Source: Shigella phage Sf25
Sequence record: MF327009
Length of the DNA: 64,000 bases
Reading direction: 5' to 3' (one strand)
Position numbers and translations under genes: made by a program. Positions 1,916-61,547 of the stretch are shown in pieces. A model generated the notes under the pieces. The model was not told where the DNA came from. It saw only the letters and a list, made by a program, of their open reading frames with translations, and did no database searches. Each line of letters starts with the position of its first letter. Positions within the stretch are counted from its first letter, which is position 1.

Positions 1916-3626
1916 TAACCTTAATTGGTTTGTTGGTGTTGTTGAAGATAGAATGGACCCATTAAAATTAGGTCGTGTTCGTGTTCGTGTGGTTGGTCTG
2001 CATCCACCACAAAGAGCACAAGGTGATGTAATGGGTATTCCAACTGAAAAATTACCATGGATGTCAGTTATTCAACCTATAACTTCTGCAGCAATGTCTG
2101 GAATTGGAGGTTCTGTTACTGGACCGGTAGAAGGAACTAGAGTTTATGGTCATTTTTTGGACAAATGGAAAACTAACGGAATTGTCCTTGGCACGTATGG
2201 TGGAATAGTTCGCGAAAAACCGAATAGACTTGAAGGATTTTCTGACCCAACTGGGCAATATCCTAGACGTTTAGGAAATGATACTAACGTACTAAACCAA
2301 GGCGGTGATGTAGGATATGATTCCTCTTCTAATGTTATTCAAGATAGTAACTTAGACACTGCAATAAATCCTGATGATAGACCATTATCAGAAATTCCAA
2401 CTGATGATAATCCAAATATGTCAATGGCTGAAATGCTTCGCCGCGATGAAGGATTAAGACTAAAAGTTTATTGGGATACCGAAGGATATCCGACAATTGG
2501 TATTGGTCATCTTATCATGAAGCAGCCAGTTCGTGATATGGCCCAAATTAATAAAGTTTTATCAAAACAGGTTGGTCGTGAAATTACCGGAAATCCAGGT
2601 TCTATTACAATGGAAGAAGCGGTAACTTTATTTGAACGTGATTTAGCTGATATGCAACGTGACATTAAATCACATTCTAAAGTTGGCCCAGTTTGGCAAG
2701 CGGTTAATCGTTCTCGTCAAATGGCATTAGAAAATATGGCATTTCAGATGGGTGTTGGCGGTGTAGCTAAATTTAACACAATGTTAACTGCTATGTTAGC
2801 CGGAGATTGGGAAAAAGCATATAAAGCTGGTCGTGATTCATTGTGGTATCAACAAACAAAAGGCCGTGCATCTCGTGTTACCATGATTATTCTTACAGGG
2901 AATTTGGAATCATACGGTATTGAAGTGAAAACACCGGCTAGGTCTTTGTCTGCAATGGCTGCTACTGTAGCAAAGTCTTCTGACCCGGCTGACCCTCCTA
3001 TTCCGAATGATTCGAGAATTTTATTTAAAGAACCTGTTTCTTCATATAAAGGTGAATATCCGTATGTTCACACAATGGAAACTGAAAGCGGTCATATTCA
3101 GGAATTTGACGATACCCCGGGACAAGAACGATACAGATTAGTTCATCCAACTGGAACTTATGAAGAAGTATCACCGTCAGGAAGAAGAACAAGAAAAACT
3201 GTTGATAATTTGTATGATATAACCAACGCTGATGGTAATTTTTTGGTAGCCGGTGATAAAAAGACTAACGTCGGTGGATCAGAAATTTATTACAACATGG
3301 ATAATCGTCTTCACCAAATAGATGGAAGCAATACGATATTTGTGCGTGGCGATGAAACTAAGACAGTTGAAGGTAATGGAACTATCCTAGTTAAAGGCAA
3401 TGTTACTATTGTAGTTGAAGGTAATGCTGACATTACAGTTAAAGGAGATGCTACCACTTTAGTTGAAGGAAATCAGACTAATACAGTAAATGGAAATCTT
3501 TCTTGGAAAGTTGCTGGGACAGTTGATTGGGACGTTGGTGGTGATTGGACAGAAAAAATGGCATCTATGAGTTCTATTTCATCTGGTCAATACACAATTG
3601 ATGGATCGAGGATTGACATTGGCTAA
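1899..3626 (+). CDS. 5: gp5 baseplate hub subunit / tail-associated lysozyme (cell-puncturing spike)
   Basis: 575 aa; T4-lysozyme-like segment (EGLRLKVYWDTEGYPTIGIGHL); C-terminal VxGxxxV beta-helix repeats. Confidence 0.95.
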   Translation: MEMISNNLNWFVGVVEDRMDPLKLGRVRVRVVGLHPPQRAQGDVMGIPTEKLPWMSVIQPITSAAMSGIGGSVTGPVEGTRVYGHFLDKWKTNGIVLGTYGGIVREKPNRLEGFSDPTGQYPRRLGNDTNVLNQGGDVGYDSSSNVIQDSNLDTAINPDDRPLSEIPTDDNPNMSMAEMLRRDEGLRLKVYWDTEGYPTIGIGHLIMKQPVRDMAQINKVLSKQVGREITGNPGSITMEEAVTLFERDLADMQRDIKSHSKVGPVWQAVNRSRQMALENMAFQMGVGGVAKFNTMLTAMLAGDWEKAYKAGRDSLWYQQTKGRASRVTMIILTGNLESYGIEVKTPARSLSAMAATVAKSSDPADPPIPNDSRILFKEPVSSYKGEYPYVHTMETESGHIQEFDDTPGQERYRLVHPTGTYEEVSPSGRRTRKTVDNLYDITNADGNFLVAGDKKTNVGGSEIYYNMDNRLHQIDGSNTIFVRGDETKTVEGNGTILVKGNVTIVVEGNADITVKGDATTLVEGNQTNTVNGNLSWKVAGTVDWDVGGDWTEKMASMSSISSGQYTIDGSRIDIG

Positions 3627-4150
3627 TATACTTCCAATGAGCGCTGATTTAGGAGAATCCATGGAAGGTTCTTCTATCGACGTCACCTTTACCGCTCAAT
3701 TAGAAACAGGTGAAACGTTAGTATCTATAAATATAACTAGTTACGAAGAAACTCCTGGGGTTTTAGTAGAAGAAAATCGTTTATATGGAACGTATGAATC
3801 TGTATTTGGATTTGGAAATGATGCGTTGAAATATCGTTTAGACGTTGGTGGTGATTGGACAGAAAAAATGGCATCTATGAGTTCTATTTCATCTGGTCAA
3901 TACACAATTGATGGATCGAGGATTGACATTGGCTAATATACTTCCAATGAGCGCTGATTTAGGAGAATCCATGGAAGGTTCTTCTATCGACGTCACCTTT
4001 ACCGCTCAATTAGAAACAGGTGAAACGTTAGTATCTATAAATATAACTAGTTACGAAGAAACTCCTGGGGTTTTAGTAGAAGAAAATCGTTTATATGGAA
4101 CGTATGAATCTGTATTTGGATTTGGAAATGATGCGTTGAAATATCGTTTA
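3531..4150. repeat. perfect tandem duplication, 2 x 310 bp (3531-3840 and 3841-4150)
   Basis: identical sequence at offset 310; spans gene 5 3' end and gene 5.1 5' end. Confidence 0.95.
3601..3936 (+). other. chimeric ORF created by the duplication: first 80 codons of 5.1 fused in frame to last ~30 codons of gp5
   Basis: 112-aa ORF; C-terminus VGGDWTEKMASMSSISSGQYTIDGSRIDIG is identical to the gp5 C-terminus. Confidence 0.7.
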
Positions 4151-4465
4151 GATAATGAATTTAAAACCGCTGCTTCATGGGAAGACCTTCCAACTGATTC
4201 TAATACTCAGTTATATTTATGGAAAGCTCCTCAAAACCTCCAGAAGACATTCACTTACGAAGTAACATTAATATATGACTACCAAGAACAAGGTGAATCT
4301 GGAGGTTCTGGTAGTAATTCTAGGTCATCTTCTGATACTACTGAACCGACAGATCCTCCTGCTCTAGTAAGAAAAACTCTCGTTAAAAATTATACTAAAA
4401 CTATAGTTGGAAATTGGAGTCGTTGGGCTAATAAACTGAGAAGCTACGTGTATGAGAGGCCATAA
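3911..4465 (+). CDS. 5.1: gene 5.1-like protein (intact second copy)
   Basis: 184-aa ORF from ATG 3911, follows gene 5 as in T4. Confidence 0.7.
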   Translation: MDRGLTLANILPMSADLGESMEGSSIDVTFTAQLETGETLVSINITSYEETPGVLVEENRLYGTYESVFGFGNDALKYRLDNEFKTAASWEDLPTDSNTQLYLWKAPQNLQKTFTYEVTLIYDYQEQGESGGSGSNSRSSSDTTEPTDPPALVRKTLVKNYTKTIVGNWSRWANKLRSYVYERP

Positions 4466-4691
4466 ATGTCAGGATTAAGTTATGATAAGTGTGTTACTGC
4501 TGGCCATGAAGCGTGGCCTCCAACAGTCGTGAATGCTACAAATTAAAAAGCCATATGAAACACATGGCGGAGTGACACAACCTAGAACTTCTAAGGTATA
4601 TGTCACTGGAAAGAAAGCTGTTCAAATGGCTGATCCAATATCATGCGGTGATACTGTGGCTCAGGCATCATCTAAAGTATTCATTAAATAG
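4466..4691 (+). pseudogene. 5.4: gene 5.4 (PAAR-like tail spike tip) disrupted by internal ~68-bp deletion and frameshift
   Basis: ATG at 4466 encodes [26 protein letters not shown] then TAA at 4544; the C-terminal 48 codons (KKPYETHGG...[16 protein letters not shown]) continue in another frame to TAG 4689-4691. Confidence 0.75.
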
Positions 4692-4699
4692 GATTTAAA

Positions 4700-6682
4700 A
4701 TGGCAAATACCCCTGTAAATTATCAATTAACAAGAACAGCAAATGCTATTCCCGAGATATTCGTCGGGGGTACGTTTGCTGAAATAAAACAAAACCTCAT
4801 TGAATGGCTTAATGGCCAAAATGAATTTTTGGATTATGATTTTGAAGGCTCAAGATTAAACGTTCTGTGTGACCTTTTGGCTTATAATACGCTGTACATT
4901 CAACAGTTTGGTAATGCTGCTGTGTATGAAAGCTTTATGCGTACTGCTAACTTACGAAGTTCAGTTGTTCAAGCTGCACAAGATAACGGATATTTACCTA
5001 CTTCAAAATCCGCTGCGCAGACCGAAATTATGTTAACATGCACCGACGCATTGAATAGGAATTACATTACTATTCCTCGCGGAACTCGCTTTTTAGCATA
5101 TGCAAAAGATACTTCTGTTAATCCATATAACTTCGTTTCTACCGAAGACGTTATTGCCATTCGTGATAAAAATAACCAATATTTTCCGCGTTTAAAATTG
5201 GCCCAGGGACGTATAGTAAGAACTGAAATCATTTATGATAAATTAACACCTATTATCATTTATGATAAAAATATTGATAGAAACCAGGTTAAATTATATG
5301 TTGATGGAGCGGAATGGATTAACTGGACGAGAAAGTCAATGGTTCATGCTGGTTCAACATCAACGATTTACTATATGCGTGAAACTATTGATGGAAACAC
5401 TGAATTCTATTTTGGCGAAGGTGAAATTTCTGTTAATGCTTCTGAAGGAGCTTTGACCGCTAATTATATCGGAGGTCTTAAACCTACCCAGAACTCTACG
5501 ATTGTTATTGAGTACATCAGTACTAACGGTGCAGATGCGAATGGCGCAGTCGGATTTTCATATGCAGATACATTAACAAATATAACTGTCATCAATATTA
5601 ATGAAAATCCAAACGACGACCCAGATTTTGTCGGAGCAGATGGCGGCGGTGATCCAGAAGATATTGAGCGTATTCGCGAATTGGGTACTATTAAACGCGA
5701 AACCCAGCAACGCTGCGTAACTGCGACTGACTACGATACATTCGTTTCAGAGAGATTTGGTTCTATTATTCAAGCTGTTCAGACTTTCACTGATTCTACT
5801 AAACCTGGGTATGCATTTATTGCTGCTAAACCTAAATCAGGATTGTATTTAACTACTGTGCAACGTGAAGATATTAAAAATTATCTCAAAGACTATAATT
5901 TAGCTCCTATTACGCCATCAATTATTTCTCCTAATTATCTTTTTATTAAGACTAATTTAAAAGTCACATATGCTTTAAATAAGCTGCAAGAATCCGAACA
6001 GTGGCTCGAAGGTCAAATAATTGATAAAATTGATCGTTATTATACCGAAGATGTAGAAATTTTTAACTCGTCTTTTGCCAAGTCTAAGATGTTGACATAT
6101 GTAGATGATGCAGATCATTCTATCATTGGTTCATCAGCGACAATTCAAATTGTTCGTGAAGTACAAAACTTCTATAAAACACCTGAAGCAGGTATTAAAT
6201 ACAATAATCAAATAAAAGATCGTTCTATGGAATCTAATACGTTTTCATTTAATTCTGGACGAAAGGTTGTAAATCCTGATACTGGTTTAGAAGAAGATGT
6301 ATTATATGACGTTCGTATAGTATCAACAGACCGAGATTCTAAAGGAATCGGTAAAGTTATTATTGGTCCATTTGCTTCTGGCGATGTTGCAGAAAATGAA
6401 AACATTCAGCCGTATACAGGCAACGATTTTAACAAATTAGCAAATTCTGATGGACGCGACAAATACTATGTTATCGGTGAAATAAATTATCCAGCTGACA
6501 TGATTTATTGGAATATCGCTAAAATTAATTTAACATCTGAAAAATTTGAAGTTCAGACTATTGAATTATATTCTGACCCAACTGATGATGTTATCTTTAC
6601 TCGCGATGGTTCACTGATTGTATTTGAAAATGACTTACGTCCACAATACTTAACTATCGATTTGGAGCCTATATCACAATGA
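4700..6682 (+). CDS. 6: gp6 baseplate wedge subunit
   Basis: 660 aa; T4 length and synteny. Confidence 0.9.
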   Translation: MANTPVNYQLTRTANAIPEIFVGGTFAEIKQNLIEWLNGQNEFLDYDFEGSRLNVLCDLLAYNTLYIQQFGNAAVYESFMRTANLRSSVVQAAQDNGYLPTSKSAAQTEIMLTCTDALNRNYITIPRGTRFLAYAKDTSVNPYNFVSTEDVIAIRDKNNQYFPRLKLAQGRIVRTEIIYDKLTPIIIYDKNIDRNQVKLYVDGAEWINWTRKSMVHAGSTSTIYYMRETIDGNTEFYFGEGEISVNASEGALTANYIGGLKPTQNSTIVIEYISTNGADANGAVGFSYADTLTNITVININENPNDDPDFVGADGGGDPEDIERIRELGTIKRETQQRCVTATDYDTFVSERFGSIIQAVQTFTDSTKPGYAFIAAKPKSGLYLTTVQREDIKNYLKDYNLAPITPSIISPNYLFIKTNLKVTYALNKLQESEQWLEGQIIDKIDRYYTEDVEIFNSSFAKSKMLTYVDDADHSIIGSSATIQIVREVQNFYKTPEAGIKYNNQIKDRSMESNTFSFNSGRKVVNPDTGLEEDVLYDVRIVSTDRDSKGIGKVIIGPFASGDVAENENIQPYTGNDFNKLANSDGRDKYYVIGEINYPADMIYWNIAKINLTSEKFEVQTIELYSDPTDDVIFTRDGSLIVFENDLRPQYLTIDLEPISQ

Positions 6683-18986: not shown

Positions 18987-22124
<3,138 letters not shown>

Positions 22125-31541: not shown

Positions 31542-32546
31542 TTAACTTACCAATTCAATCCAAGCCGGACGAAGTACATCTTGTACCATTTTAACTAATT
31601 CCTTTTTAATCAAAGAAGGATTATCCGCTTGAGTTAGAGTAATACCTTCACGAGAAGTTTCTTCCAAAATATCTTGAACAGTTAGTCCCATCACCTTTCC
31701 AAAATCTTTTGGACCAATTTCGCCAATTTTAGAAATAACGTTATTTACTCGGTTTAGTGTAACGTAACAAGCTAAAATCCCCACCAATTTGTTATCAGCT
31801 TCTGACAGTTCAACTTTAGCTTTAATAGGCTTATCAGACTTTTTCTTTTCACTAAATTTAGAATTCTTGCATTTGATGGCTACACGATTGCGATTAGGCA
31901 GCCAAGAAGGATAACAAGGTTTCAATACATATCCTTCAGCGGTAAATACTTCGCCTTTGGCTTCAGCTTTCCAAACACATTTGTTAGCGTCAATTAAACC
32001 TGCATTATCTACGGTAAAATTATAAGACGGAACAACAGAATCCAAATCATTTGGAAGTTTAATAAGATCTTCAAATTTACCACGACCCAAAAGTGGAGCG
32101 ATTTTAAACCCAAATGAATTACAAAACGATTCCATCATGTAATCATCAACATAAGTTACATCACCACTTTCGGTAGTGACAATAATGTCAAATACATAAA
32201 AATCTTTATCGCCATAATCAACATTCTTCTGAATGCCAGGTCCAGCGAATTCGCCAAAAACTTGATAAGTCACAACAGCTGAAGTTTCCATAATTTCTTG
32301 GACAGCTTTAATAGAATCTTCGTAATTCTTTAAAATAATTTCATAACCGAAGAAATCTTCAGCAGGAAGAATCGGTCCAGTACGTTTAGCGCAAGTTACT
32401 TTATCACGCTCAATAATCAATGAGAAATTTGTGCCGTGAATCTTTTCACGAGCTACCCATTCGCCGCCAGTCAATCCTAAGCTATAAAGTTTTTCAATAA
32501 ATTTAGAGTTGTAATGATTTTCAAGACTGCTATACTTTTTAAACAT
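31542..32546 (-). CDS. rnlB: RNA ligase 2 (RnlB)
   Basis: 334 aa; nucleotidyltransferase lysine motif KIHGTN. Confidence 0.9.
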
Positions 32547-32555
32547 AATTAATCC

Positions 32556-32834
32556 TCAAAATGTAATTTCTAACCAATCACCATCACGCTGATCACTATT
32601 GACTTTAAAGCTGAATCCTTCTTTTCTCAGCCAATCACCAATTTCTTCAGTAATCAATTTATCGCGAGCAGTACAATAATAACTAAAATATGTTTTACCT
32701 TGTTCAGCTGCTTTATTAGCAAGTTCTGAAAAATCTTTAATAAAACACTCTAGCTTAAACTGTTTACTTTTTAATGCTTTTTCACGTAATTGATTAGCAA
32801 AAGATTCATTTTCATAAAGATCATACTGTTCCAT
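32556..32834 (-). CDS. hypothetical protein (T4 24.2 position)
   Basis: 92-aa ORF between rnlB and hoc. Confidence 0.55.
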   Translation of the reverse strand: MEQYDLYENESFANQLREKALKSKQFKLECFIKDFSELANKAAEQGKTYFSYYCTARDKLITEEIGDWLRKEGFSFKVNSDQRDGDWLEITF

Positions 32835-33036
32835 TTTTCACCTTTTTATTGATATGTCTTTTTCTATAGACAACTTTTTCTCGAGTTTCAAATTTATTCT
32901 TAGCAGTCATAGCTCGAGCCCATAATACAGCCACTTCTTTCGCCTGTAAGTTTAATTCACGAGCAATTTCAATGAATGACTTTCCAGACTCATGAAGAGT
33001 AAACACCACAACCTCAGTTCTCATAATCAATCTCAT
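32821..33036 (-). CDS. small helix-turn-helix-like protein (T4 24.3 position)
   Basis: 71-aa ORF; FIEIARELNLQAKEV resembles an HTH. Confidence 0.5.
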   Translation of the reverse strand: MRLIMRTEVVVFTLHESGKSFIEIARELNLQAKEVAVLWARAMTAKNKFETREKVVYRKRHINKKVKNGTV

Positions 33037-33326
33037 GTTATCGAGTTGGTGCCATTATATACATCATTTTCTGATTGTGTTTTGTGTGCTTTCAAAATGA
33101 AGAAAGGGGCCGAAGCCCCTTATGTAATACAGCCACTTCTTTCGCCTGTAAGTTTAATTCACGAGCAATTTCAATGAATGACTTTCCAGACTCATGAAGA
33201 GTAAACACCACAACCTCAGTTCTCATAATCAATCTCATGTTATCGAGTTGGTGCCATTATATACATCATTTTCTGATTGTGTTTTGTGTGCTTTCAAAAT
33301 GAAGAAAGGGGCCGAAGCCCCTTATG
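32923..33326. repeat. perfect tandem duplication, 2 x 202 bp (32923-33124 and 33125-33326)
   Basis: identical at offset 202; covers the 5' 38 codons of the small HTH gene, its upstream region and a GGGGCC-GAAG-CCCC hairpin. Confidence 0.95.
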
Positions 33327-33327
33327 A

Positions 33328-34392
33328 TTATGGATAGGTATAGATGATACCAGTTTCTAAAGCAGTTTTATGAATGATGTATCCATTACGTGATTCTTGA
33401 ACATCAACTTCTGGATAGTCTTTCATCATCTTCTGAAGCGTATAACGATGCAAGTAGTATTTACTATCTGGATCGTCAGTTTTCCAATCTTTACCTTCTT
33501 CGGTCATTTTTTGGATTTCATCCATAACCCACCAACCACACCAGATGTAAGCTGAAGTACGATGTGGAAGAGGATGAACATAAGGTAATTCACCTTCTGG
33601 CTCTGGAGCAACTTTATCAGTTACCTGAACTTGACCTTCCGCCGTAATAGTTTTGCTATCATAATCAGCAGCAGTAACAGTTGCAGTAACTTCAATAGTT
33701 TGACTTCCAATAGATGAGGTATCAATGGTATATACATTAGTTGACCCTTCTACAGGAGAAGAATCTTTCTTCCATGAATACGCAATTTGCGCTTCTTCTG
33801 GAGCATCAGTGACATTAGCAGTAAATGTAGCCGAAGCATCTTGTTGAACGTTAATAGAAGGAGGAGTCAATGTAACCTGTGGATTCATTGTCTTCTTATT
33901 AACTGTTAATGATACTTCATTCGAAGTAACTTCCTTTTCATTGTAATTTTCAGCAGTTACTTGGGCTACGCATTTAATTCTTTTTACTCCACTTGTAGTT
34001 GGAGTATAGCTAAATGTAGAGTTAGTTTCTCCACCAACTTGTGAATCATCTACATACCACTGATACGTAGCAGATGCGCCTGATGGCTGCGAAGCCAAAG
34101 CAGCGGTAAATTCAACAGCTGTTCCGATTACTCCTTCCGGAGGACTATTAGGAGTTACGGCTAAGGTAGTCGTCTGTGTCTTATTTTGAACTGTGATAGT
34201 TGTACTAATTTCAGCTGTTTCGGGACTACTATCGGCAACTTGATTTGTTGCAACTACTTTAATAGTCTTTTGACCGGCAGGTCCTTTTAATACATAACTA
34301 AAAGTTGCTTCAGCTCCATCTTGTGGAACATCATCTACAGTCCAAGCATATGTAATAGGTCCATCTCCAGTTTGACCACTGGGCGTAGCAGT
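33328..34392 (-). pseudogene. hoc: hoc (highly immunogenic outer capsid protein), 5'-truncated, no start codon
   Basis: Hoc reading frame open for ~354 codons (FTATPSGQTG... to ...GIIYTYP) but bounded upstream by an in-frame TAA at 34396-34398; no ATG/GTG/TTG before an internal TTG at 34096-34098. Confidence 0.7.
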
Positions 34393-35015
34393 AAATTAAT
34401 GTAATAAATTAAGCTAAATAATGTTTGGTGTGCAGAAGCATGCTCAAAACTAGTTGGGTGAGATTTCCAATCCGGAGTTTCAGCGATCCATTGATAAATC
34501 CACCAAGGAACAGTACAGAATCCTGGATTTTTTCCAATCAACTGAAGATTCGGGCTAAAGTTTTCCGGAAGAGTAAATACAGACGGCTTTTCAGATTCAA
34601 TAATCTCAGCTACAGCCTGTTCGAATTTTTCTTCAACAAAAGGAGTATCTTCAATCAAAACATCGGTATTTTCAGGAATTTTATCCGTTTCTACTACTTC
34701 AATTTTAATGTCAGATTTAACTGGAGAATCAATCAAAAGTGCTGCTTCTGGATTGACTTCTTCATCGTCATATTTTAATCCCTCTGCAGCATCAGCAGCA
34801 TCAATTAAGTCTTTAATAGATAACCCATCAGTCTCTGGCATAGGTTCACTAGCGAGCTTCTGGAGAGCTTCTTCAATATCAACAACGATATTATCAAAAG
34901 ATTTATTCTTTTTGACCTTTATACCAAACTGTTCAGCATATTCAGCTAATTTAGCTTTAGCTTCTTTGTTATCATCAAGAGCCTTCAGCTCTGCAATATA
35001 ATCTTTATCTATCAT
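34335..35015 (-). CDS. inh: Inh, inhibitor of prohead protease
   Basis: 226-aa ORF at the T4 inh position; its 3' end overlaps the hoc frame by ~56 nt. Confidence 0.7.
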   Translation of the reverse strand: MIDKDYIAELKALDDNKEAKAKLAEYAEQFGIKVKKNKSFDNIVVDIEEALQKLASEPMPETDGLSIKDLIDAADAAEGLKYDDEEVNPEAALLIDSPVKSDIKIEVVETDKIPENTDVLIEDTPFVEEKFEQAVAEIIESEKPSVFTLPENFSPNLQLIGKNPGFCTVPWWIYQWIAETPDWKSHPTSFEHASAHQTLFSLIYYINLLLRPVVKLEMDLLHMLGL

Positions 35016-38813: not shown

Positions 38814-38834
38814 ATTTGAATAAAAGGAGCATCT

Positions 38835-45393: not shown

Positions 45394-45424
45394 TTTGTGT
45401 TCCTCATGTTATGTCAGTAAGATT

Positions 45425-45453
45425 ACTATAACACAACACGAGGGACTTGTAAA
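45425..45453 (-). promoter_or_regulatory. sigma70-like early promoter (-35 TTTACA, 17-nt spacer, extended -10 TGtTATAGT)
   Basis: reverse complement of 45401-45454 reads GTTTACA...TGTTATAGT; the 54-bp element is identical to 61491-61544. Confidence 0.65.
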
Positions 45454-47511
45454 CTACATCTTGAACTTTTTAGACATTCCGTTGATGTTAACCAAAGAAG
45501 CCAAGATTTGAGAAACTTCGTTTTCCTCTTCTTTTGATTCTTCTACGAGGAATTGATTAAACCCAGCCATTGGACGAACTTCGCCAGTTTCCATTAGATG
45601 ATCGCCATCATATACCGATTCTTCTAATTGTTCAGAAGGAGGAACGATTGTGCCTTCGATTAGATACTTGTTATAAGCAGTTTCTTTCATCATGTACGTG
45701 CTTACTTTATTAATCTTCAACAAAATTCCACGCGGTAGAATAACTTCAGCTTCTGATGGAAATCCTGATAAATGACCTGGAACGATAACTTTGATTCGCT
45801 CAGCTCCTTTAATTACCATACCCACGCTAGTTTCAGCATCTTCATTAGCATATGTAGAATGACTACCCATATGCATCAAATCTTCTGCATCAATGGAACC
45901 TTCTCCTTCACCAGAAAATACTGCGCCGGAATCATCTAGAGCCATATAGTTTTTACCATGCTCACCGAAGATATTTGGTTTAAGCGATGTTGATACGAAG
46001 TTCTTGAAATAGAACATTTTATTTTCAATGTTATGACGCAAAGTTTTAAAGGTAACTTCTTGCCCACGATAAAGAGTAGTTCCTGGAGGAAGAACTGAAC
46101 CTTTAGCAAATGCAGAATCCAACGTCTCGATGTGTTTAATAGCTCGTTCCATATATTCTTCACGGGTAGAATCAGGTTTACCTAAAAGGAACGAGTTCAT
46201 TTCAACATATGAATCTGCACAATAATCTTCAATTACATCAGACTCAGCCTGAGTTAATCCTTTTGGAGTTACTTCAGTGCTTGCGTATTCATATGCCTGA
46301 GCGGCAGATTCATTAATCAATTTATAAATGCCATTCATGACAAATTGAATAATAGCTGTCTTTTCATCTGGTGTAGCTTTAGAACCTTTAACTAAATCAT
46401 TGATAATTTTCTTAATAACATCAAAGCTATTAGAAATATTAATGTCAGCAAGATCGCTTAAAATTTTATCAGTTTTATAATCAAAGAATTCTTTATTCTT
46501 TAAATATTCTTGAGAACCTTGATATGTTATATCGCTCTGCAACTTGATAGATGGATCACGTAAACGTGCATGGGCTAATGCAATATGATTTCGGAAACTT
46601 TCTAGTTCATAATCGTTAGATTTAAAACGAGAAGCACTTCTCATACCACCGATAGCTCCTTTGCTAAAGTTTGAACCAATCTGAATAACGCCAGAGTTCA
46701 TCGGACCTTCTGCTTTATATACCGGAACTTTAGATTCAAACTCTTGATATTTCTTAGCAGCGAAGCTATCACCCTGAAGTGAAGCATCAACAGTAGAATA
46801 TTGAGCTTGTGCTGCTAATCGACGACTAATTTTAGTTTTCTGAATAACAGCTTGATCCGTGCGCTTATCATTTTCTAAAGCAATAGAAGCAGCAACAGCG
46901 ACAGCTTTAGGAACAGCATTACCTGTTTTAACGTCTACATAAACATCACCAACCTTTGATTCAACTTTTGTGAATAACTCAGTTGAAATAGGAGGTACAC
47001 CTGGAATGTCTTCTAAATTGGCATTTTTACGGTAAACCATAATATATGCATATTTCTTATCATAGTCCCAGATTTCCTTTAAAAGAACATATCGACCTGC
47101 TCCTTTAGTACGTACTAAACGGTCAGCAATAACTTGCATTTGACGAGCAGCGCCATTTGTTTTACTCTTTAGTACGCGGAATAAGCATGCATCAATTTTA
47201 TACTGTTTCATTGTTTGAAGAGCAGTATCAAAAACAGCATTAATGACGCCAATTGGATTTCCACCCAAGTTTTTAAGCTTGACTAACGATAATTTCTCGT
47301 TGACACCTATCATTACGATATGCATCATTTTGTCGCCTGGCTTAACGTTTTTATTCGTATCACCGCCAGAGGTGTATGTACAAAATCTAAATCCAGGAAG
47401 CACGCTTTCTTCACCGGCTTGAATAGCAAAAATTTGTGGTATTTTATGCTTAGGATTTAAGTTAACAACCGGCGCCGAAGCGCCGTCAAATAATTCTGTA
47501 ATAAGTTCCAT
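45454..47511 (-). CDS. Alt-family ADP-ribosyltransferase paralog
   Basis: 685 aa; N-terminal MELITELFD shared with Alt; ART motifs YRGQ, FVSTSL, SEAEVILPRG. Confidence 0.85.
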   Translation of the reverse strand: MELITELFDGASAPVVNLNPKHKIPQIFAIQAGEESVLPGFRFCTYTSGGDTNKNVKPGDKMMHIVMIGVNEKLSLVKLKNLGGNPIGVINAVFDTALQTMKQYKIDACLFRVLKSKTNGAARQMQVIADRLVRTKGAGRYVLLKEIWDYDKKYAYIMVYRKNANLEDIPGVPPISTELFTKVESKVGDVYVDVKTGNAVPKAVAVAASIALENDKRTDQAVIQKTKISRRLAAQAQYSTVDASLQGDSFAAKKYQEFESKVPVYKAEGPMNSGVIQIGSNFSKGAIGGMRSASRFKSNDYELESFRNHIALAHARLRDPSIKLQSDITYQGSQEYLKNKEFFDYKTDKILSDLADINISNSFDVIKKIINDLVKGSKATPDEKTAIIQFVMNGIYKLINESAAQAYEYASTEVTPKGLTQAESDVIEDYCADSYVEMNSFLLGKPDSTREEYMERAIKHIETLDSAFAKGSVLPPGTTLYRGQEVTFKTLRHNIENKMFYFKNFVSTSLKPNIFGEHGKNYMALDDSGAVFSGEGEGSIDAEDLMHMGSHSTYANEDAETSVGMVIKGAERIKVIVPGHLSGFPSEAEVILPRGILLKINKVSTYMMKETAYNKYLIEGTIVPPSEQLEESVYDGDHLMETGEVRPMAGFNQFLVEESKEEENEVSQILASLVNINGMSKKFKM

Positions 47512-51309: not shown

Positions 51310-51573
51310 TGTTCATCCTTCAGAGTTTGATTTACAGCTCTATTATAAATCAATTCATCATTAAGCTCAGTTAAAGACCTATGATATGTAGTTCTAACTT
51401 TATTTCCTTGCATCCAGTGCTTGATATAAATGAAACCTTGCTCTACACATTTTTAAAAATTCGTTCGTCTTTTTGAGCTCGGAATTCTGGATTGCATCTA
51501 AAGAATTGATTTACGTGACCGTAATCACGCGTAGTATTACCTTCATTTTCATAAATAGTGTGAACGACAAACA

Positions 51574-51779: not shown

Positions 51780-52412
51780 TTATAGCTTTTTCACTATCAA
51801 AACTTTCTTTATTTTCCTTCGGTGAAAAAGTTTATTTTCTACATCATTCCATGTATAAACTCGCTGCGCAGTTTTTGGAATATTGTCACGCTCTCCTCGA
51901 GCCATCCAATAAACAGGAACATTTAATATTTCACTCGCATGATCGCAATGATGCGCGAGATCGTCAATATAACAAATTACGTTATATTTCTCTTTTGCCT
52001 TTTTGAACAACTCTTCTTTTGAAGAATCATGACCACACATCATTACTTCCGAGAAGGCGCCAGGAAAAAGAGCATTCAAATTAAATTGACGATTCAACAG
52101 AGCGTCAATAGAATCACCCAATGCTGTAACAGCTACAAAATTATAATCTTCTTTTAGTTTGTTAATTACACACAGGGCATCTTTATATGGAGACAAGTAA
52201 CGAATAAAATCTGATCGATTATATTTTTCAATTAACTTGACACCAAGTTCTTCATCACAATTAAAGAGTTTACCTGGAGAAATAAATTTCTCATCTTGGA
52301 TCATTTTTAAAATATGTTCTAACGGAAGATTATATTTCTGAGCAAAATAAGGAAGACCTGATTGCCAGCTTAAACAAACTCCATCAATATCAGTTAAAAT
52401 AGTAGGCTTCAT
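51780..52412 (-). CDS. HAD-superfamily hydrolase-like protein
   Basis: 210 aa; N-terminal motif I LTDIDGV (DxDG). Confidence 0.65.
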   Translation of the reverse strand: MKPTILTDIDGVCLSWQSGLPYFAQKYNLPLEHILKMIQDEKFISPGKLFNCDEELGVKLIEKYNRSDFIRYLSPYKDALCVINKLKEDYNFVAVTALGDSIDALLNRQFNLNALFPGAFSEVMMCGHDSSKEELFKKAKEKYNVICYIDDLAHHCDHASEILNVPVYWMARGERDNIPKTAQRVYTWNDVENKLFHRRKIKKVLIVKKL

Positions 52413-53588: not shown

Positions 53589-53954
53589 TTAAATATCAAA
53601 TTCGTTAAGAACTACATCAAAGATTGCTTCAAGATGCTCAGGTTTAGCTCTGTTACTCAGAATATGACGAATCCAAGTTTTAACCAGAAGCTTGCGATTA
53701 ACGCCATTCCAGCAAGGATGAGTCCCTAAATCGCGTTGACGAAAATCATCATCCAAAGCGATTTTGAAGTTGGAACCTTCCATTGTGATTGAAACCGTGA
53801 TGCCATTTTCAAATCGCATATAAACGTAGTTAGGAGTCATATACTGTTCAATTTCGCATACTGATCCATTTTGATGTTTCCAAAGGCAAATAGTATCAAT
53901 AGAACCTGCAATACCATTAGAAACATATTTACGTTCAAAGTTGATGTAGTTCAT
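53589..53954 (-). CDS. hypothetical early protein
   Basis: 121-aa ORF. Confidence 0.55.
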   Translation of the reverse strand: MNYINFERKYVSNGIAGSIDTICLWKHQNGSVCEIEQYMTPNYVYMRFENGITVSITMEGSNFKIALDDDFRQRDLGTHPCWNGVNRKLLVKTWIRHILSNRAKPEHLEAIFDVVLNEFDI

Positions 53955-54022
53955 TTTTATTCTCCGAGATGTTTAATTGCGGTACAGGTATATAATATCA
54001 TATCCTGTACCAAAGTAAACAA

Positions 54023-54355
54023 TTATTTTACTACTTTCCAGTGCTTCATGTCAAGTTTACCAACTTTTTTCATCTTCTCAATTAAGCGTTCGGCACGTTG
54101 GCGAGCTGTAACATAATACCATTCACCTAATTCATTTTGTTCAATTTTTCCAACGATTACTGTATTCAATTCATAAATCCAACCAGTAAAGAAATTATGA
54201 ACTTGAATTGTAAAGGTGAAATCTGTTCCCATACCTTCTGTTGTTTCTACTTCAATAATATCACCTTCAACTGCCATTAAGAACCACATAGTTTCATCAT
54301 ATTTACCATTGAAGCATTTAGTTTTAACTGCAGCGTTCAGATTAATCGTTTTCAT
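54023..54355 (-). CDS. hypothetical early protein
   Basis: 110-aa ORF preceded by an early promoter. Confidence 0.55.
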   Translation of the reverse strand: MKTINLNAAVKTKCFNGKYDETMWFLMAVEGDIIEVETTEGMGTDFTFTIQVHNFFTGWIYELNTVIVGKIEQNELGEWYYVTARQRAERLIEKMKKVGKLDMKHWKVVK

Positions 54356-54382
54356 TTTATTCTCCTTTGTTTCTGTAAGATA

Positions 54383-54411
54383 ATACTAACACAAAGGAAC
54401 CATACTGTAAA
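54383..54411 (-). promoter_or_regulatory. sigma70-like early promoter (-35 TTTACA, 17-nt spacer, TGtTAGTAT)
   Basis: reverse complement of 54383-54412 reads GTTTACA-N17-TAGTAT. Confidence 0.5.
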
Positions 54412-54430
54412 CAACTTTGTGCAATCTTTG

Positions 54431-54460
54431 GAAAATAAAAAAGGACTCCCGAAGGAGTCC
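54431..54460 (-). terminator. rho-independent terminator (GGACTCC-CGAA-GGAGTCC hairpin plus U-run) after the duplicated basic-protein gene
   Basis: perfect 7-bp stem followed on the minus strand by TTTTTTATTTTC. Confidence 0.65.
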
Positions 54461-54465
54461 TCAAC

Positions 54466-54807
54466 TTATGCTTTCTGCTTACCAAAACGAGAAGCATCAT
54501 CTCGAAGAACCGCACGTGCTCGGCGCATGATCTTCTCAACAGTTTGATTGATACGAGAGTTCGACCCACGCTTGTAGCCAGCGCGTTTAGAATCACCAAC
54601 TTTCTTTTCAACTGCTTTCTTTGCTTTAGCTTGTTTTTTCTGCTTACCAAAACGAGAAGCATCATCTCGAAGAACCGCACGTGCTCGGCGCATGATCTTC
54701 TCAACAGTTTGATTGATACGAGAGTTCGACCCACGCTTGTAGCCAGCGCGTTTAGAATCACCAACTTTCTTTTCAACTGCTTTCTTTGCTTTAGCTTGTT
54801 TTGCCAT
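54466..54807 (-). CDS. small lysine/arginine-rich protein carrying an in-frame 55-codon tandem duplication
   Basis: from ATG 54807: MAKQAKAKKAVEKK...RFGKQK then KQAKAKKAVEKK...RFGKQKA; 113 aa, about 58 aa without the duplication. Confidence 0.65.
   Translation of the reverse strand: MAKQAKAKKAVEKKVGDSKRAGYKRGSNSRINQTVEKIMRRARAVLRDDASRFGKQKKQAKAKKAVEKKVGDSKRAGYKRGSNSRINQTVEKIMRRARAVLRDDASRFGKQKA
54472..54801. repeat. perfect tandem duplication, 2 x 165 bp (54472-54636 and 54637-54801)
   Basis: identical at offset 165, in frame within the basic-protein gene. Confidence 0.95.
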
Positions 54808-55095
54808 TATAAATTCTCTTTTAAATGAAAATGCAGGACTTATTGGCATTGCCTGCGCAAGCCCTCAAGGGGAACATAGGTTTTTGGATATTTAACGACC
54901 AGGATAACCATAAACCCGTCATCATACCACCAAGACTTACACAGATAACACTTTTCTGACGCATGATAGTAACATTCAAGAGGTACACCGTAAAACTGCC
55001 GGGGTCTTGAAACTATAATGATTCGCAAATCATTAATCAGACAGTTCGACGGCTCCTCGATTTAGCTCACACTAAGGCAGTGAATCTCCAATAAA

Positions 55096-55344
55096 TTACT
55101 TCAATGTTACCACAAAGTGACGAACTGCTTTTCGTGCAGCAGAAGCCAGAGGCTTAGCATACTTAAGTTCATCTTTTTCCTGGAGCTCAGCAGCTAATGC
55201 AGTTTGAGCAGGATTCAGATGTTTGAAATAACGCAGGATTTCAAGAGCTTCGGCTTCAACATCAATAGATGCGCCATAGTTTTCGTGACCATTATTCCAT
55301 GCGTTTCGTTGCAGTTCAAGAGCGTGTTGTAATTGTTTAATCAT
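55096..55344 (-). CDS. rIII: rIII lysis-inhibition accessory protein
   Basis: 82-aa ORF directly downstream of gene 31 as in T4. Confidence 0.7.
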   Translation of the reverse strand: MIKQLQHALELQRNAWNNGHENYGASIDVEAEALEILRYFKHLNPAQTALAAELQEKDELKYAKPLASAARKAVRHFVVTLK

Positions 55345-55428
55345 TTAAAAATTCTCGTTAGAGATTAAAACTCGGTAGTCACGTTCTTCTGAATTTCATC
55401 TTCTTTCGACAGATCTCTCAGTTGTAGA

Positions 55429-55734
55429 CTAACAGGTAACGAATTTTTGTTTAATTTCTTTTGGCTGCTTAAGACCCAGAGCTACAAAAGGGTGTGGAAC
55501 GTTTCGAATTTGACCAACTGGAAGAGAAGTCAAATCACCAACTTCACAGAAACCTTCAGGAACATCAGGACCAACAGAGTGAACTACACACAGTTCAGGA
55601 ACTTCACCTTGAACACGTTTACCGATAATAAGTCCTGATTCTGTAACTTCTTCATCACCGGCTTGTGCAGGTTCAGAAACTAAAATAACATATTCACCGA
55701 CAGCACGAATTGGTAGCTGTTGTACTTCAGACAT
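55429..55734 (-). CDS. 31: gp31 co-chaperonin (GroES analogue)
   Basis: 101-aa [25 protein letters not shown]...; T4 synteny. Confidence 0.8.
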
Positions 55735-57252: not shown

Positions 57253-57485
57253 AGTACGCCATACACCCTTTGTGCTTCAACTAATCCATCAAAATCCAGT
57301 TTAAGATGTGTTATTTGATCACCATCACCTGGATTCACAATTACTAATACTGAACGAGGAGTTTCGGTAATAACACGAACCGATGTTTCAGGAAATCGTT
57401 CAGAAACCTTATTTACCAATTCCTGAGCAAATAGTTTAACTTTTTCTTGGAATTCTTTAACAGTAATTGGTTTTTCACTTAGCAT
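57249..57485 (-). CDS. hypothetical early protein
   Basis: 78-aa ORF. Confidence 0.5.
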   Translation of the reverse strand: MLSEKPITVKEFQEKVKLFAQELVNKVSERFPETSVRVITETPRSVLVIVNPGDGDQITHLKLDFDGLVEAQRVYGVL

Positions 57486-58006
57486 GTTGATCCCAGCTCC
57501 TTACTTTCAACGTTTTTAACTAATTTGACAGAAACTAATTCGGCATCTTGGGTAATCATTACCGGGCCTTCTTCATACTCTTCAAGATATTCTAGAGCTT
57601 TCTTTTTAGCTTCTTCCTTCGTATCAGTTTGAGCATAGATATAGAACATACAACCAGTAATACCTACTACTTTCCACTTAATTTCTTTATCAGTTTTAAT
57701 TTCAAATTTACTGATAGAGTCATCTTTTTGAACTTCTTCGAAAAAATAATATTCTGACATATAAGTAATTGAAAATAACGGGCTATCTTTATAAGATTCG
57801 CCCATTACATCAACAGCTTTATACCAGCAGTCATCAATTTCACGTTTAATGCTAATAACATTTTTCGCAGAATCTATTTTTACTTTAAATGAATTTTCCC
57901 CAATAAACTTGGCAATTCGTTTATTAGCCCCGCAAGTTTCATTAAAAATATCTTTATATCCAGCTTTAAAGCGATAAACCTTATCTTCTTCAAACCATTT
58001 GCTCAT
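57479..58006 (-). CDS. hypothetical early protein
   Basis: 175-aa ORF preceded by an early promoter. Confidence 0.55.
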   Translation of the reverse strand: MSKWFEEDKVYRFKAGYKDIFNETCGANKRIAKFIGENSFKVKIDSAKNVISIKREIDDCWYKAVDVMGESYKDSPLFSITYMSEYYFFEEVQKDDSISKFEIKTDKEIKWKVVGITGCMFYIYAQTDTKEEAKKKALEYLEEYEEGPVMITQDAELVSVKLVKNVESKELGSTC

Positions 58007-58036
58007 TTCAATTTCCTCATTTGTTTTGGTAGAGCT

Positions 58037-60196: not shown

Positions 60197-60639
60197 TTAT
60201 CCTCTTTTAACTCTTGACGATAATAACATATCATAGTTTTCTGATCATGTACATATCGTTTTACATCATTAAGCCAAATGCGAAATTCCTGGGAATCTTC
60301 AAATGGCATACCGACCCAAGCTTTACCATCAATAACTTTAACTTGCCAGGATAGTTTAGCTTCATCGTATGACTTTATTTGTACTGGCCAATTAGGATGA
60401 ACTGTTTCTTTCTTTACTTCTAGAGGCTTTGTCGAACAACCAACTAGAAGACCAATAGATAATATTACCCAAGCTTTACCATCAATAACTTTAACTTGCC
60501 AGGATAGTTTAGCTTCATCGTATGACTTTATTTGTACTGGCCAATTAGGATGAACTGTTTCTTTCTTTACTTCTAGAGGCTTTGTCGAACAACCAACTAG
60601 AAGACCAATAGATAATATTACTGCTGATAGTTTAATCAT
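60187..60639 (-). CDS. outer-membrane spanin (o-spanin lipoprotein) carrying an in-frame 51-codon tandem duplication
   Basis: 150 aa; signal peptide with lipobox LLVGC; residues ILSIGLLVGCSTKPLEV...DGKAWV occur twice in tandem. Confidence 0.7.
   Translation of the reverse strand: MIKLSAVILSIGLLVGCSTKPLEVKKETVHPNWPVQIKSYDEAKLSWQVKVIDGKAWVILSIGLLVGCSTKPLEVKKETVHPNWPVQIKSYDEAKLSWQVKVIDGKAWVGMPFEDSQEFRIWLNDVKRYVHDQKTMICYYRQELKEDKCK
60314..60619. repeat. perfect tandem duplication, 2 x 153 bp (60314-60466 and 60467-60619)
   Basis: identical at offset 153, in frame within the o-spanin gene. Confidence 0.95.
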
Positions 60640-61483: not shown

Positions 61484-61514
61484 CATAAAGTCCTCATGTT
61501 ATGTCAGTAAGATT

Positions 61515-61543
61515 ACTATAACACAACACGAGGGACTTGTAAA
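61515..61543 (-). promoter_or_regulatory. sigma70-like early promoter upstream of alc (second copy of the 54-bp element)
   Basis: 61491-61544 is identical to 45401-45454: -35 TTTACA, 17-nt spacer, TGtTATAGT. Confidence 0.65.
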
Positions 61544-61547
61544 CAGC

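Follow-up and report, generated by a model that had tools for sequence, protein, structure and literature searches.

Phage T4 readily forms tandem amplifications, as described for the segmental amplification of dmd-tifA in a study which also cites duplications of rII and of genes 16–18 (Srikant et al., 2022; PMC9391042). Genuine T4 amplifications comprise whole genes together with their promoters, reach many copies and are balanced by deletions of 0.7–6 kb that remove non-essential genes, while both amplifications and deletions arise between repeats of 6–10 (2–10) bp (PMC9391042). Artefactual internal repeats are likewise documented in phage assemblies. From one phage genome, an internal repeat of 79 bp was taken out as an artefact of assembly (10.1101/2023.03.09.531871), and artefactual DTRs have been noted for SPAdes (10.64898/2026.05.06.722914).

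The window analyzed here, a stretch of 64,000 nucleotides from the record of Shigella phage Sf25 (MF327009), corresponds to the structural and early-gene region of a T4-like phage (Tequatrovirus), running from genes 53/5 through 24, rnlB, 24.2, 24.3, hoc, inh and uvsW to nrdB. It carries a perfect 202-bp tandem duplication next to hoc which, judged from the sequence and its comparison with relatives, is probably a construction artefact introduced when pieces were joined, as opposed to a trait of a replicating phage. The two copies, at 32923–33124 and 33125–33326, are identical at every base in an exact-seed scan, and TRF reports a single array at 32923–33326 with a period of 202, 2.0 copies, 100% matches, 0 indels and a score of 808; both methods thus place the duplication where the original prediction had placed it. 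Since the length of the match equals its offset, there is no partial third copy and 0 nt of microhomology at the junction, the absence of which had also been claimed correctly. The flanking bases differ on the left (a/g) and on the right (t/a), so that neither side can be extended by even 1 base. An identity of 202 adjacent bases is not attributable to chance. The junction at 33124|33125 is spanned by the 28-mer CGAAGCCCCTTATGTAATACAGCCACTT.

Read on the minus strand, the unit consists, in this order, of a hoc-type terminator, an upstream region of about 65 nt belonging to 24.3 and 38 codons of a 71-aa ORF, which in the first copy are the initial codons of the intact 24.3. The second copy ends 1 base short of the hoc stop codon (33328–33330), position 33327 being the sole intervening base in place of the 2 nt first reported. 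The intact 24.3 homologue (32821–33036, minus strand, 71 aa) begins within the unit, which indeed holds its start, its first 38 codons and its upstream region as predicted; its share of the unit amounts to 114 nt (38 of 71 codons), and no complete gene lies inside. The 71-aa ORF matches PF11242 (DUF2774) with E = 3.9e-31 and 107.5 bits (cut-off 29.2) over residues 5–68, covering the whole profile, and in T4 the gene is annotated in a 67-aa form that starts at the second ATG. In T4T, T6, SholemSchwarzbard, EH2 and 20 further loci, 24.3 is found between 24.2 and hoc as in the window, and neither in its full-length Pfam hit nor in this position does the intact copy differ from T4 gene 24.3. The description as a small HTH-like gene next to hoc therefore stands with respect to size and location, whereas the helix-turn-helix rests on a sub-threshold GerE-type match (E = 0.002, 18.2 bits vs. 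a cut-off of 23.5). A literature search on the function of 24.3 and DUF2774 returned no paper mentioning DUF2774.

Downstream of 24.3 on the same strand, rnlB is intact in the window (334 aa). In EH2 (OZ034684.1, vB_Eco_EH2), the rnlB annotation is split between two overlapping “RNA ligase” CDSs (641–1647 of the fetched locus), and the sequence is 2 bases longer than the window near window position 32307, suggesting a frameshift or a sequencing error in that deposit.

The hairpin noted in the unit was recovered in both copies, as an extra copy at 33104–33121 and as the native copy just 3′ of hoc at 33306–33323, both on the minus strand. In each case AAGGGGCTTCGGCCCCTT is followed by TCTTCATTTT, and the fold of the extra copy has a stem of 7 bp and a loop of 4 nt. 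The plus strand is better parsed as GGGGC-CGAA-GCCCC than as the GGGGCC-GAAG-CCCC initially given, and the minus strand reads AAGGGGCUUCGGCCCCUU followed by the U-rich tail UCUUCAUUUU. With a GC-rich stem-loop and a U-rich tract directly after the hoc stop, the element has the features of a putative Rho-independent terminator, and a terminator is annotated over this stretch in the relatives X14869.1, KJ668714.2 and GiZh. The junction also creates a chimeric ORF (33092–33238, minus strand), in which the 38 N-terminal residues of 24.3 are followed by HKGLRPLSSF, read through the duplicated terminator. This truncated variant encoded by the upstream copy thus has 48 aa and not 50; its match to DUF2774 (E = 9.9e-12) covers the N-terminal half of the domain, and the exact product has 0 matches in an index of 153 billion genes. 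Meanwhile, the intact 24.3-24.2-rnlB series retains its native 88-nt upstream region.

A search with a 1401-bp query around the locus retrieved 494 deposited phage genomes matching over at least 80% of its length, and in all of the best 40 of these 494 matches the span in the record is 202 bp shorter than the query, corresponding to one copy. With a query centered on the junction, every record among the matches listed aligns in two pieces over a single 202-bp unit (best piece E-value 1e-23), and none of them shows a contiguous match across the junction. A 34-mer across the same junction has 0 hits in IMG/VR, JGI metagenome contigs and GTDB genomes. Furthermore, the unit is single-copy in all of the fetched loci that contain it (25 of 25). 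A further 20 loci, retrieved via identical RnlB or gp24.2 proteins, all carry a single 24.3, an intact hoc (376–664 aa) and an intact inh. Across close relatives, Hoc measures 281, 376, 472, 474, 568 or 664 aa, a range which reflects that Ig-like domains are naturally acquired and lost, and which makes the hoc region harder to align.

These comparisons bear on the idea that the duplication is adaptive, with a second terminator or promoter, or a 48-aa helix-turn-helix fragment, modulating 24.3/24.2/rnlB or hoc under selection. In favor of this idea, the minus strand of the unit carries weak promoter-like hexamers in addition to the terminator-like hairpin, and the 48-aa product retains the N-terminal half of DUF2774. 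The hexamers, however, are not enriched (5 found vs. 3.2 ± 1.6 in shuffles), the arrangement does not recur in relatives, either among the matches listed or in the fetched loci, hoc itself is decapitated in the same sequence, and nothing sets the 202-bp event apart from seven others described below. An adaptive origin is accordingly regarded as extremely improbable.

The original prediction had framed the repeat as a single event at the hoc locus, a framing which does not hold, as the repeat is one of eight private structural discrepancies that lack appreciable microhomology and are scattered across the window. Scanning of the whole window with TRF and exact seeds revealed four perfect tandem duplications of 310, 202, 165 and 153 bp, each in 2.0 copies with 100% identity; their junctions lie at 3840/3841, 33124/33125, 54636/54637 and 60466/60467, respectively. 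The duplication with a period of 310 (3531–4152) covers the 3′ end of gene 5 and the 5′ end of 5.1, where both genes keep an intact copy and a 112-aa 5.1′-gp5′ fusion ORF is created. The one with a period of 202 (32923–33326), covering the 5′ end of 24.3 and the hoc terminator, similarly leaves each flanking gene an intact copy. The remaining two are in frame: the duplication with a period of 165 (55 codons; 54472–54802) lies inside the gene 30.9 homologue, and that with a period of 153 (51 codons; 60314–60621) inside the o-spanin gene pseT.2. For the duplicated o-spanin no exact-protein match is on record, and the 310-, 165- and 153-bp units are single-copy in deposited relatives among the matches listed. 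By contrast, a 54-bp exact dispersed direct repeat at 45401–45454 and 61491–61544, 16 kb apart, is considered natural because both sites also carry it in SholemSchwarzbard.

Deletions were called by aligning the window to four full-length relatives, namely SholemSchwarzbard, T4T, EH2 and T6, and the four described next are evident in comparison with each of them. A private deletion of 68 bp at 4539/4540, 699 bp to the right of the 310-bp junction, lies in the interior of gene 5.4, which encodes the PAAR spike tip, and causes a frameshift. Another of 133 bp at 34394/34395, 1270 bp to the right of the 202-bp junction, removes the 5′ end of hoc and the 3′ end of inh; the hoc remnant (33328–34394, minus strand) keeps an open frame but has neither a start codon nor a ribosome-binding site and is missing roughly its first 19–40 codons. 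At 38817/38818, a private deletion of 29 bp (del29) removes AGCTCCTTTATTTATCATATTTATAAATA, which comprises the Shine-Dalgarno sequence of gene 26 and the TATAAATA late promoter of gene 51. The fourth, a private deletion of 72–93 bp (del93) at 55431/55432, takes away the last 10 codons and the stop of gene 31 together with downstream sequence, 795 bp to the right of the 165-bp junction. When del29 and del93 were compared with the deposited collection, the best hits were 100% identical in two pieces, the record carrying 29 or 93 extra bases, and neither junction has a match in IMG/VR. The sites of del29, del93 and the four duplications are thus single-copy or undeleted in all of the best matches listed out of about 500 deposited genomes, and none of the eight junction 28-mers (four duplications and four deletions) was found in the 29 fetched loci. 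In addition, two private 1-bp homopolymer deletions, from T6 to T5 at 51450 and from A6 to A5 at 51825, shift the frames of genes 30.1 and 30.2, respectively. Inversions and foreign insertions or segments were looked for in the window and none were found.

Genes 26 and 51 are essential baseplate-hub genes in T4 genetics, and the C-terminal strand of gp31 should be required for heptamer formation by analogy with GroES. As written, the sequence is without the ribosome-binding site of gene 26, the only promoter preceding gene 51 and this C-terminal strand; the phage requires its co-chaperonin gp31 but can dispense with Hoc (PMC3012670). Several of the deletions, including del29 and del93, would thus probably be lethal, and plaque formation by a phage carrying all these defects appears unlikely. 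The candidate view that the duplications had been selected in a viable phage, which their in-frame and gene-sparing pattern had made worth serious attention, lost weight when private deletions turned out to affect essential elements. Weak counter-evidence on this point comes from the duplications themselves, all four of which spare genes, two being intragenic and in frame and two straddling gene boundaries; the chance of both intragenic duplications being in frame is about 1/9.

The events share further features. Microhomology measures 2, 0, 1 and 2 nt at the 310-, 202-, 165- and 153-bp duplications and 0, 1, 0 and 0 nt at the 68-, 133-, 29- and 93-bp deletions, and these 0–2 nt at all eight junctions are the level given by chance extension. 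Three of the four deletions sit to the right of a duplication junction (by 699, 1270 and 795 bp), with the order never reversed, a pairing which in simulations of random placement has p = 0.0016 one-sided and p = 0.012 for either side. Viewed as a tiling, the window consists of pieces of 699, 28585, 1270, 4423, 15819, 795 and 5035 bp, in which each short piece has an overlap of 150–310 bp on its left and a shortfall of 70–130 bp on its right. The same scan found one perfect tandem duplication in 678 kb of related loci, as opposed to four in the 64-kb window. The sequence around the events is 97–100% identical to deposited phages. Its ancestry shows no switch at event boundaries, which implies that the events were superimposed on a single continuous natural genome and do not mark the joins of a natural mosaic. 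A chimera of different strains was rejected on exact mismatch positions: blocks near-identical to SholemSchwarzbard, which had initially seemed to coincide with the intervals from duplication to deletion (3531–4539 and 54472–55431), in fact run at 3447–4773 and 53785–55491. Ordinary mosaic gene content is represented at 57490–58011 by a 175-aa ORF (57479–58006, minus strand) between cd.2 and cd.3, which SholemSchwarzbard and T4 lack and which EH2 and T6 possess under the annotation RB32ORF214c.

Against this background, the possibility has to be weighed that a real T4-like phage underwent a genuine tandem duplication very recently, through illegitimate recombination or template switching during replication. 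The hoc terminator and the 24.3 upstream region would then each be present twice, and the phage would gain an N-terminal 24.3 fragment of 48 aa. The known propensity of T4 for tandem amplification speaks for such an event, as do the preservation of the full 24.3 with its upstream region and the compatibility of all four duplications with gene function, two being in frame and two sparing both flanking genes. The genes touched, namely 5.1, 24.3, 30.9 and pseT.2, are moreover accessory, which also counts in its favor. On the other hand, perfect repeats of 150–310 bp should vanish quickly in recombination-proficient T4, and the presence of four together without selection is unlikely. The 202-bp repeat, with zero microhomology where 2–10 bp is typical for T4, holds only 38 codons of 24.3 and hence offers no dosage gain; it is missing from all of the best matches listed out of about 500 genomes, from all 25 fetched loci with the unit and from three large contig collections, and it is accompanied by deletions of essential expression signals and of part of gp31. 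A genuine duplication is consequently judged improbable.

A broader biological reading takes all eight events as real and attributes them to a burst of template switches, independent of microhomology, within a T4-like phage lineage or among defective genomes. In this scenario, the replisome would move back by 150–310 bp, copy about 0.7–1.3 kb and then skip 70–130 bp ahead, so that paired duplication-deletion scars would be left, of which the 24.3/hoc duplication would be one. Such a burst is considered very unlikely.

The reading preferred here, joining of pieces, would start from an ordinary mosaic Tequatrovirus segment whose sequence pieces were put together with their ends left unreconciled. 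Any overlap between a piece and its left neighbor would have been retained twice to give a perfect tandem duplication, and any shortfall toward its right neighbor would have been closed by direct abutment to give a short deletion. The position of three deletions to the right of duplication junctions is consistent with short pieces that overlap on their left and leave a gap on their right. At the hoc locus, a piece starting in 24.3 (at the equivalent of 32923) would have been appended after a piece ending at 33124, 1 base before the hoc stop; the appended piece would measure 1270 bp and end 133 bp before the next one (34394/34395). Gap-closing reads or small contigs that were pasted without trimming or gap-filling are one example of how this may have happened. 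A single circularization overlap as the sole cause was rejected in view of the four repeats of differing length and the deletions.

Several lines of evidence argue for an artefact of joining. These are the density of exact two-copy duplications relative to related loci, the duplication-then-deletion pairing, the continuity of ancestry across event boundaries and the co-occurring damage to gp31, the signals of genes 26 and 51, 5.4, hoc and inh. The tested events are private, the 202-bp junction is absent from all three sequence collections searched, the chimeric proteins are not on record, and artefactual internal repeats have precedents in phage assemblies. The 0–2 nt of microhomology depart from the 2–10 bp of genuine T4 events, and the two private homopolymer −1 frameshifts are a typical signature of sequencing error (10.1101/2023.03.09.531871). 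Conversely, overlaps of 153–310 bp match no usual assembler k-mer (e.g., 127), and a normal assembler would merge identical overlaps. The gene-sparing duplications, too, follow the pattern expected from selection on a viable phage, although chance could also produce it with an appreciable probability (about 1/9 for the two frames). Finally, the 4 + 4 symmetry of the events and their absence from every collection could suggest deliberate perturbation instead of assembly.

This last point leads to a post-assembly alteration, in which duplications, deletions and small indels were put into a natural Tequatrovirus sequence by software or by hand, for instance as simulated structural variants or through faulty application of a consensus or of variants. 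At a single junction, a deliberate or accidental in silico edit would look identical to an artefact of joining, and it is counted here as a non-biological sub-variant. It is in keeping with the equal numbers of duplications and deletions, all exact and microhomology-free, with the occurrence of the tested junctions in no public collection while their surroundings are 97–100% identical to deposited phages, and with deletions that fall irrespective of gene essentiality. Random placement, however, rarely yields three ordered pairs within 1.3 kb (p = 0.0016), and losses of 1 bp specific to homopolymers resemble sequencing chemistry and not random edits. Alteration after assembly is therefore held to be rather unlikely.

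The biological weight of the 202-bp duplication is small, as the intact 24.3 and its upstream region are kept and the extra copy contributes only a terminator and a 48-aa fragment. If the duplication were true, hoc transcripts would reach their native terminator, the first upstream copy of 24.3 would drive a 48-aa peptide ending inside the second terminator, and the second upstream copy would drive the intact 24.3-24.2-rnlB as in the wild type, with no dosage gain or new regulation evident. If all the events were true, they would point to an unusual rearrangement process in a T4-type phage. The practical value lies in quality control, given at least 10 private defects in the window (four duplications, four deletions and two homopolymer frameshifts). 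These produce spurious ORFs, namely the 48-aa 24.3′, the 112-aa 5.1′-gp5′, a doubled 30.9 and a doubled o-spanin, as well as false pseudogenes of hoc, inh, 5.4, 31, 30.1 and 30.2. Other findings in the window should be weighed against these defects wherever they depend on repeats, gene truncation or the lack of a promoter.

Compared with the recombination-mediated amplification of T4, the window resembles the known system in its head-to-tail tandem repeats and in the presence of deletions elsewhere. It differs in junctions with 0–2 nt of microhomology, in the number of exactly two copies, in the gene fragment that makes up part of the 202-bp unit and in deletions of 29–133 bp which strike essential functions. 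Applied to the 202-bp repeat itself, this comparison finds the head-to-tail arrangement but neither junction homology of 2–10 bp nor a complete selectable gene or promoter. A likely example of an untrimmed overlap is the deposited relative OR525702.1, the source of the one perfect tandem duplication detected in the 678 kb of related loci. Here, a perfect 127-bp repeat at 19383–19636 of the fetched locus splits the essential tail sheath gene 18 into fragments of 171 and 453 aa, its length not being a multiple of 3. The maximum SPAdes k-mer is likewise 127, and the repeat in OR525702.1 is probably an untrimmed circularization or end overlap. Unlike SPAdes k-mer artefacts, which consist of one repeat of 55, 77, 99 or 127 bp and turn from terminal into internal tandem repeats when a genome is re-oriented, the window has repeats of 310, 202, 165 and 153 bp, so that the 202-bp repeat does not have a k-mer length. 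It does share with untrimmed overlaps its exactly two identical copies and the company of other assembly-type errors. More generally, like artefacts of untrimmed overlap in phage assemblies, the repeats of the window occur in exactly two copies that are 100% identical, lack microhomology and are placed arbitrarily with respect to genes, and their interleaving with four short deletions points to piecewise joining and not to one circularization overlap.
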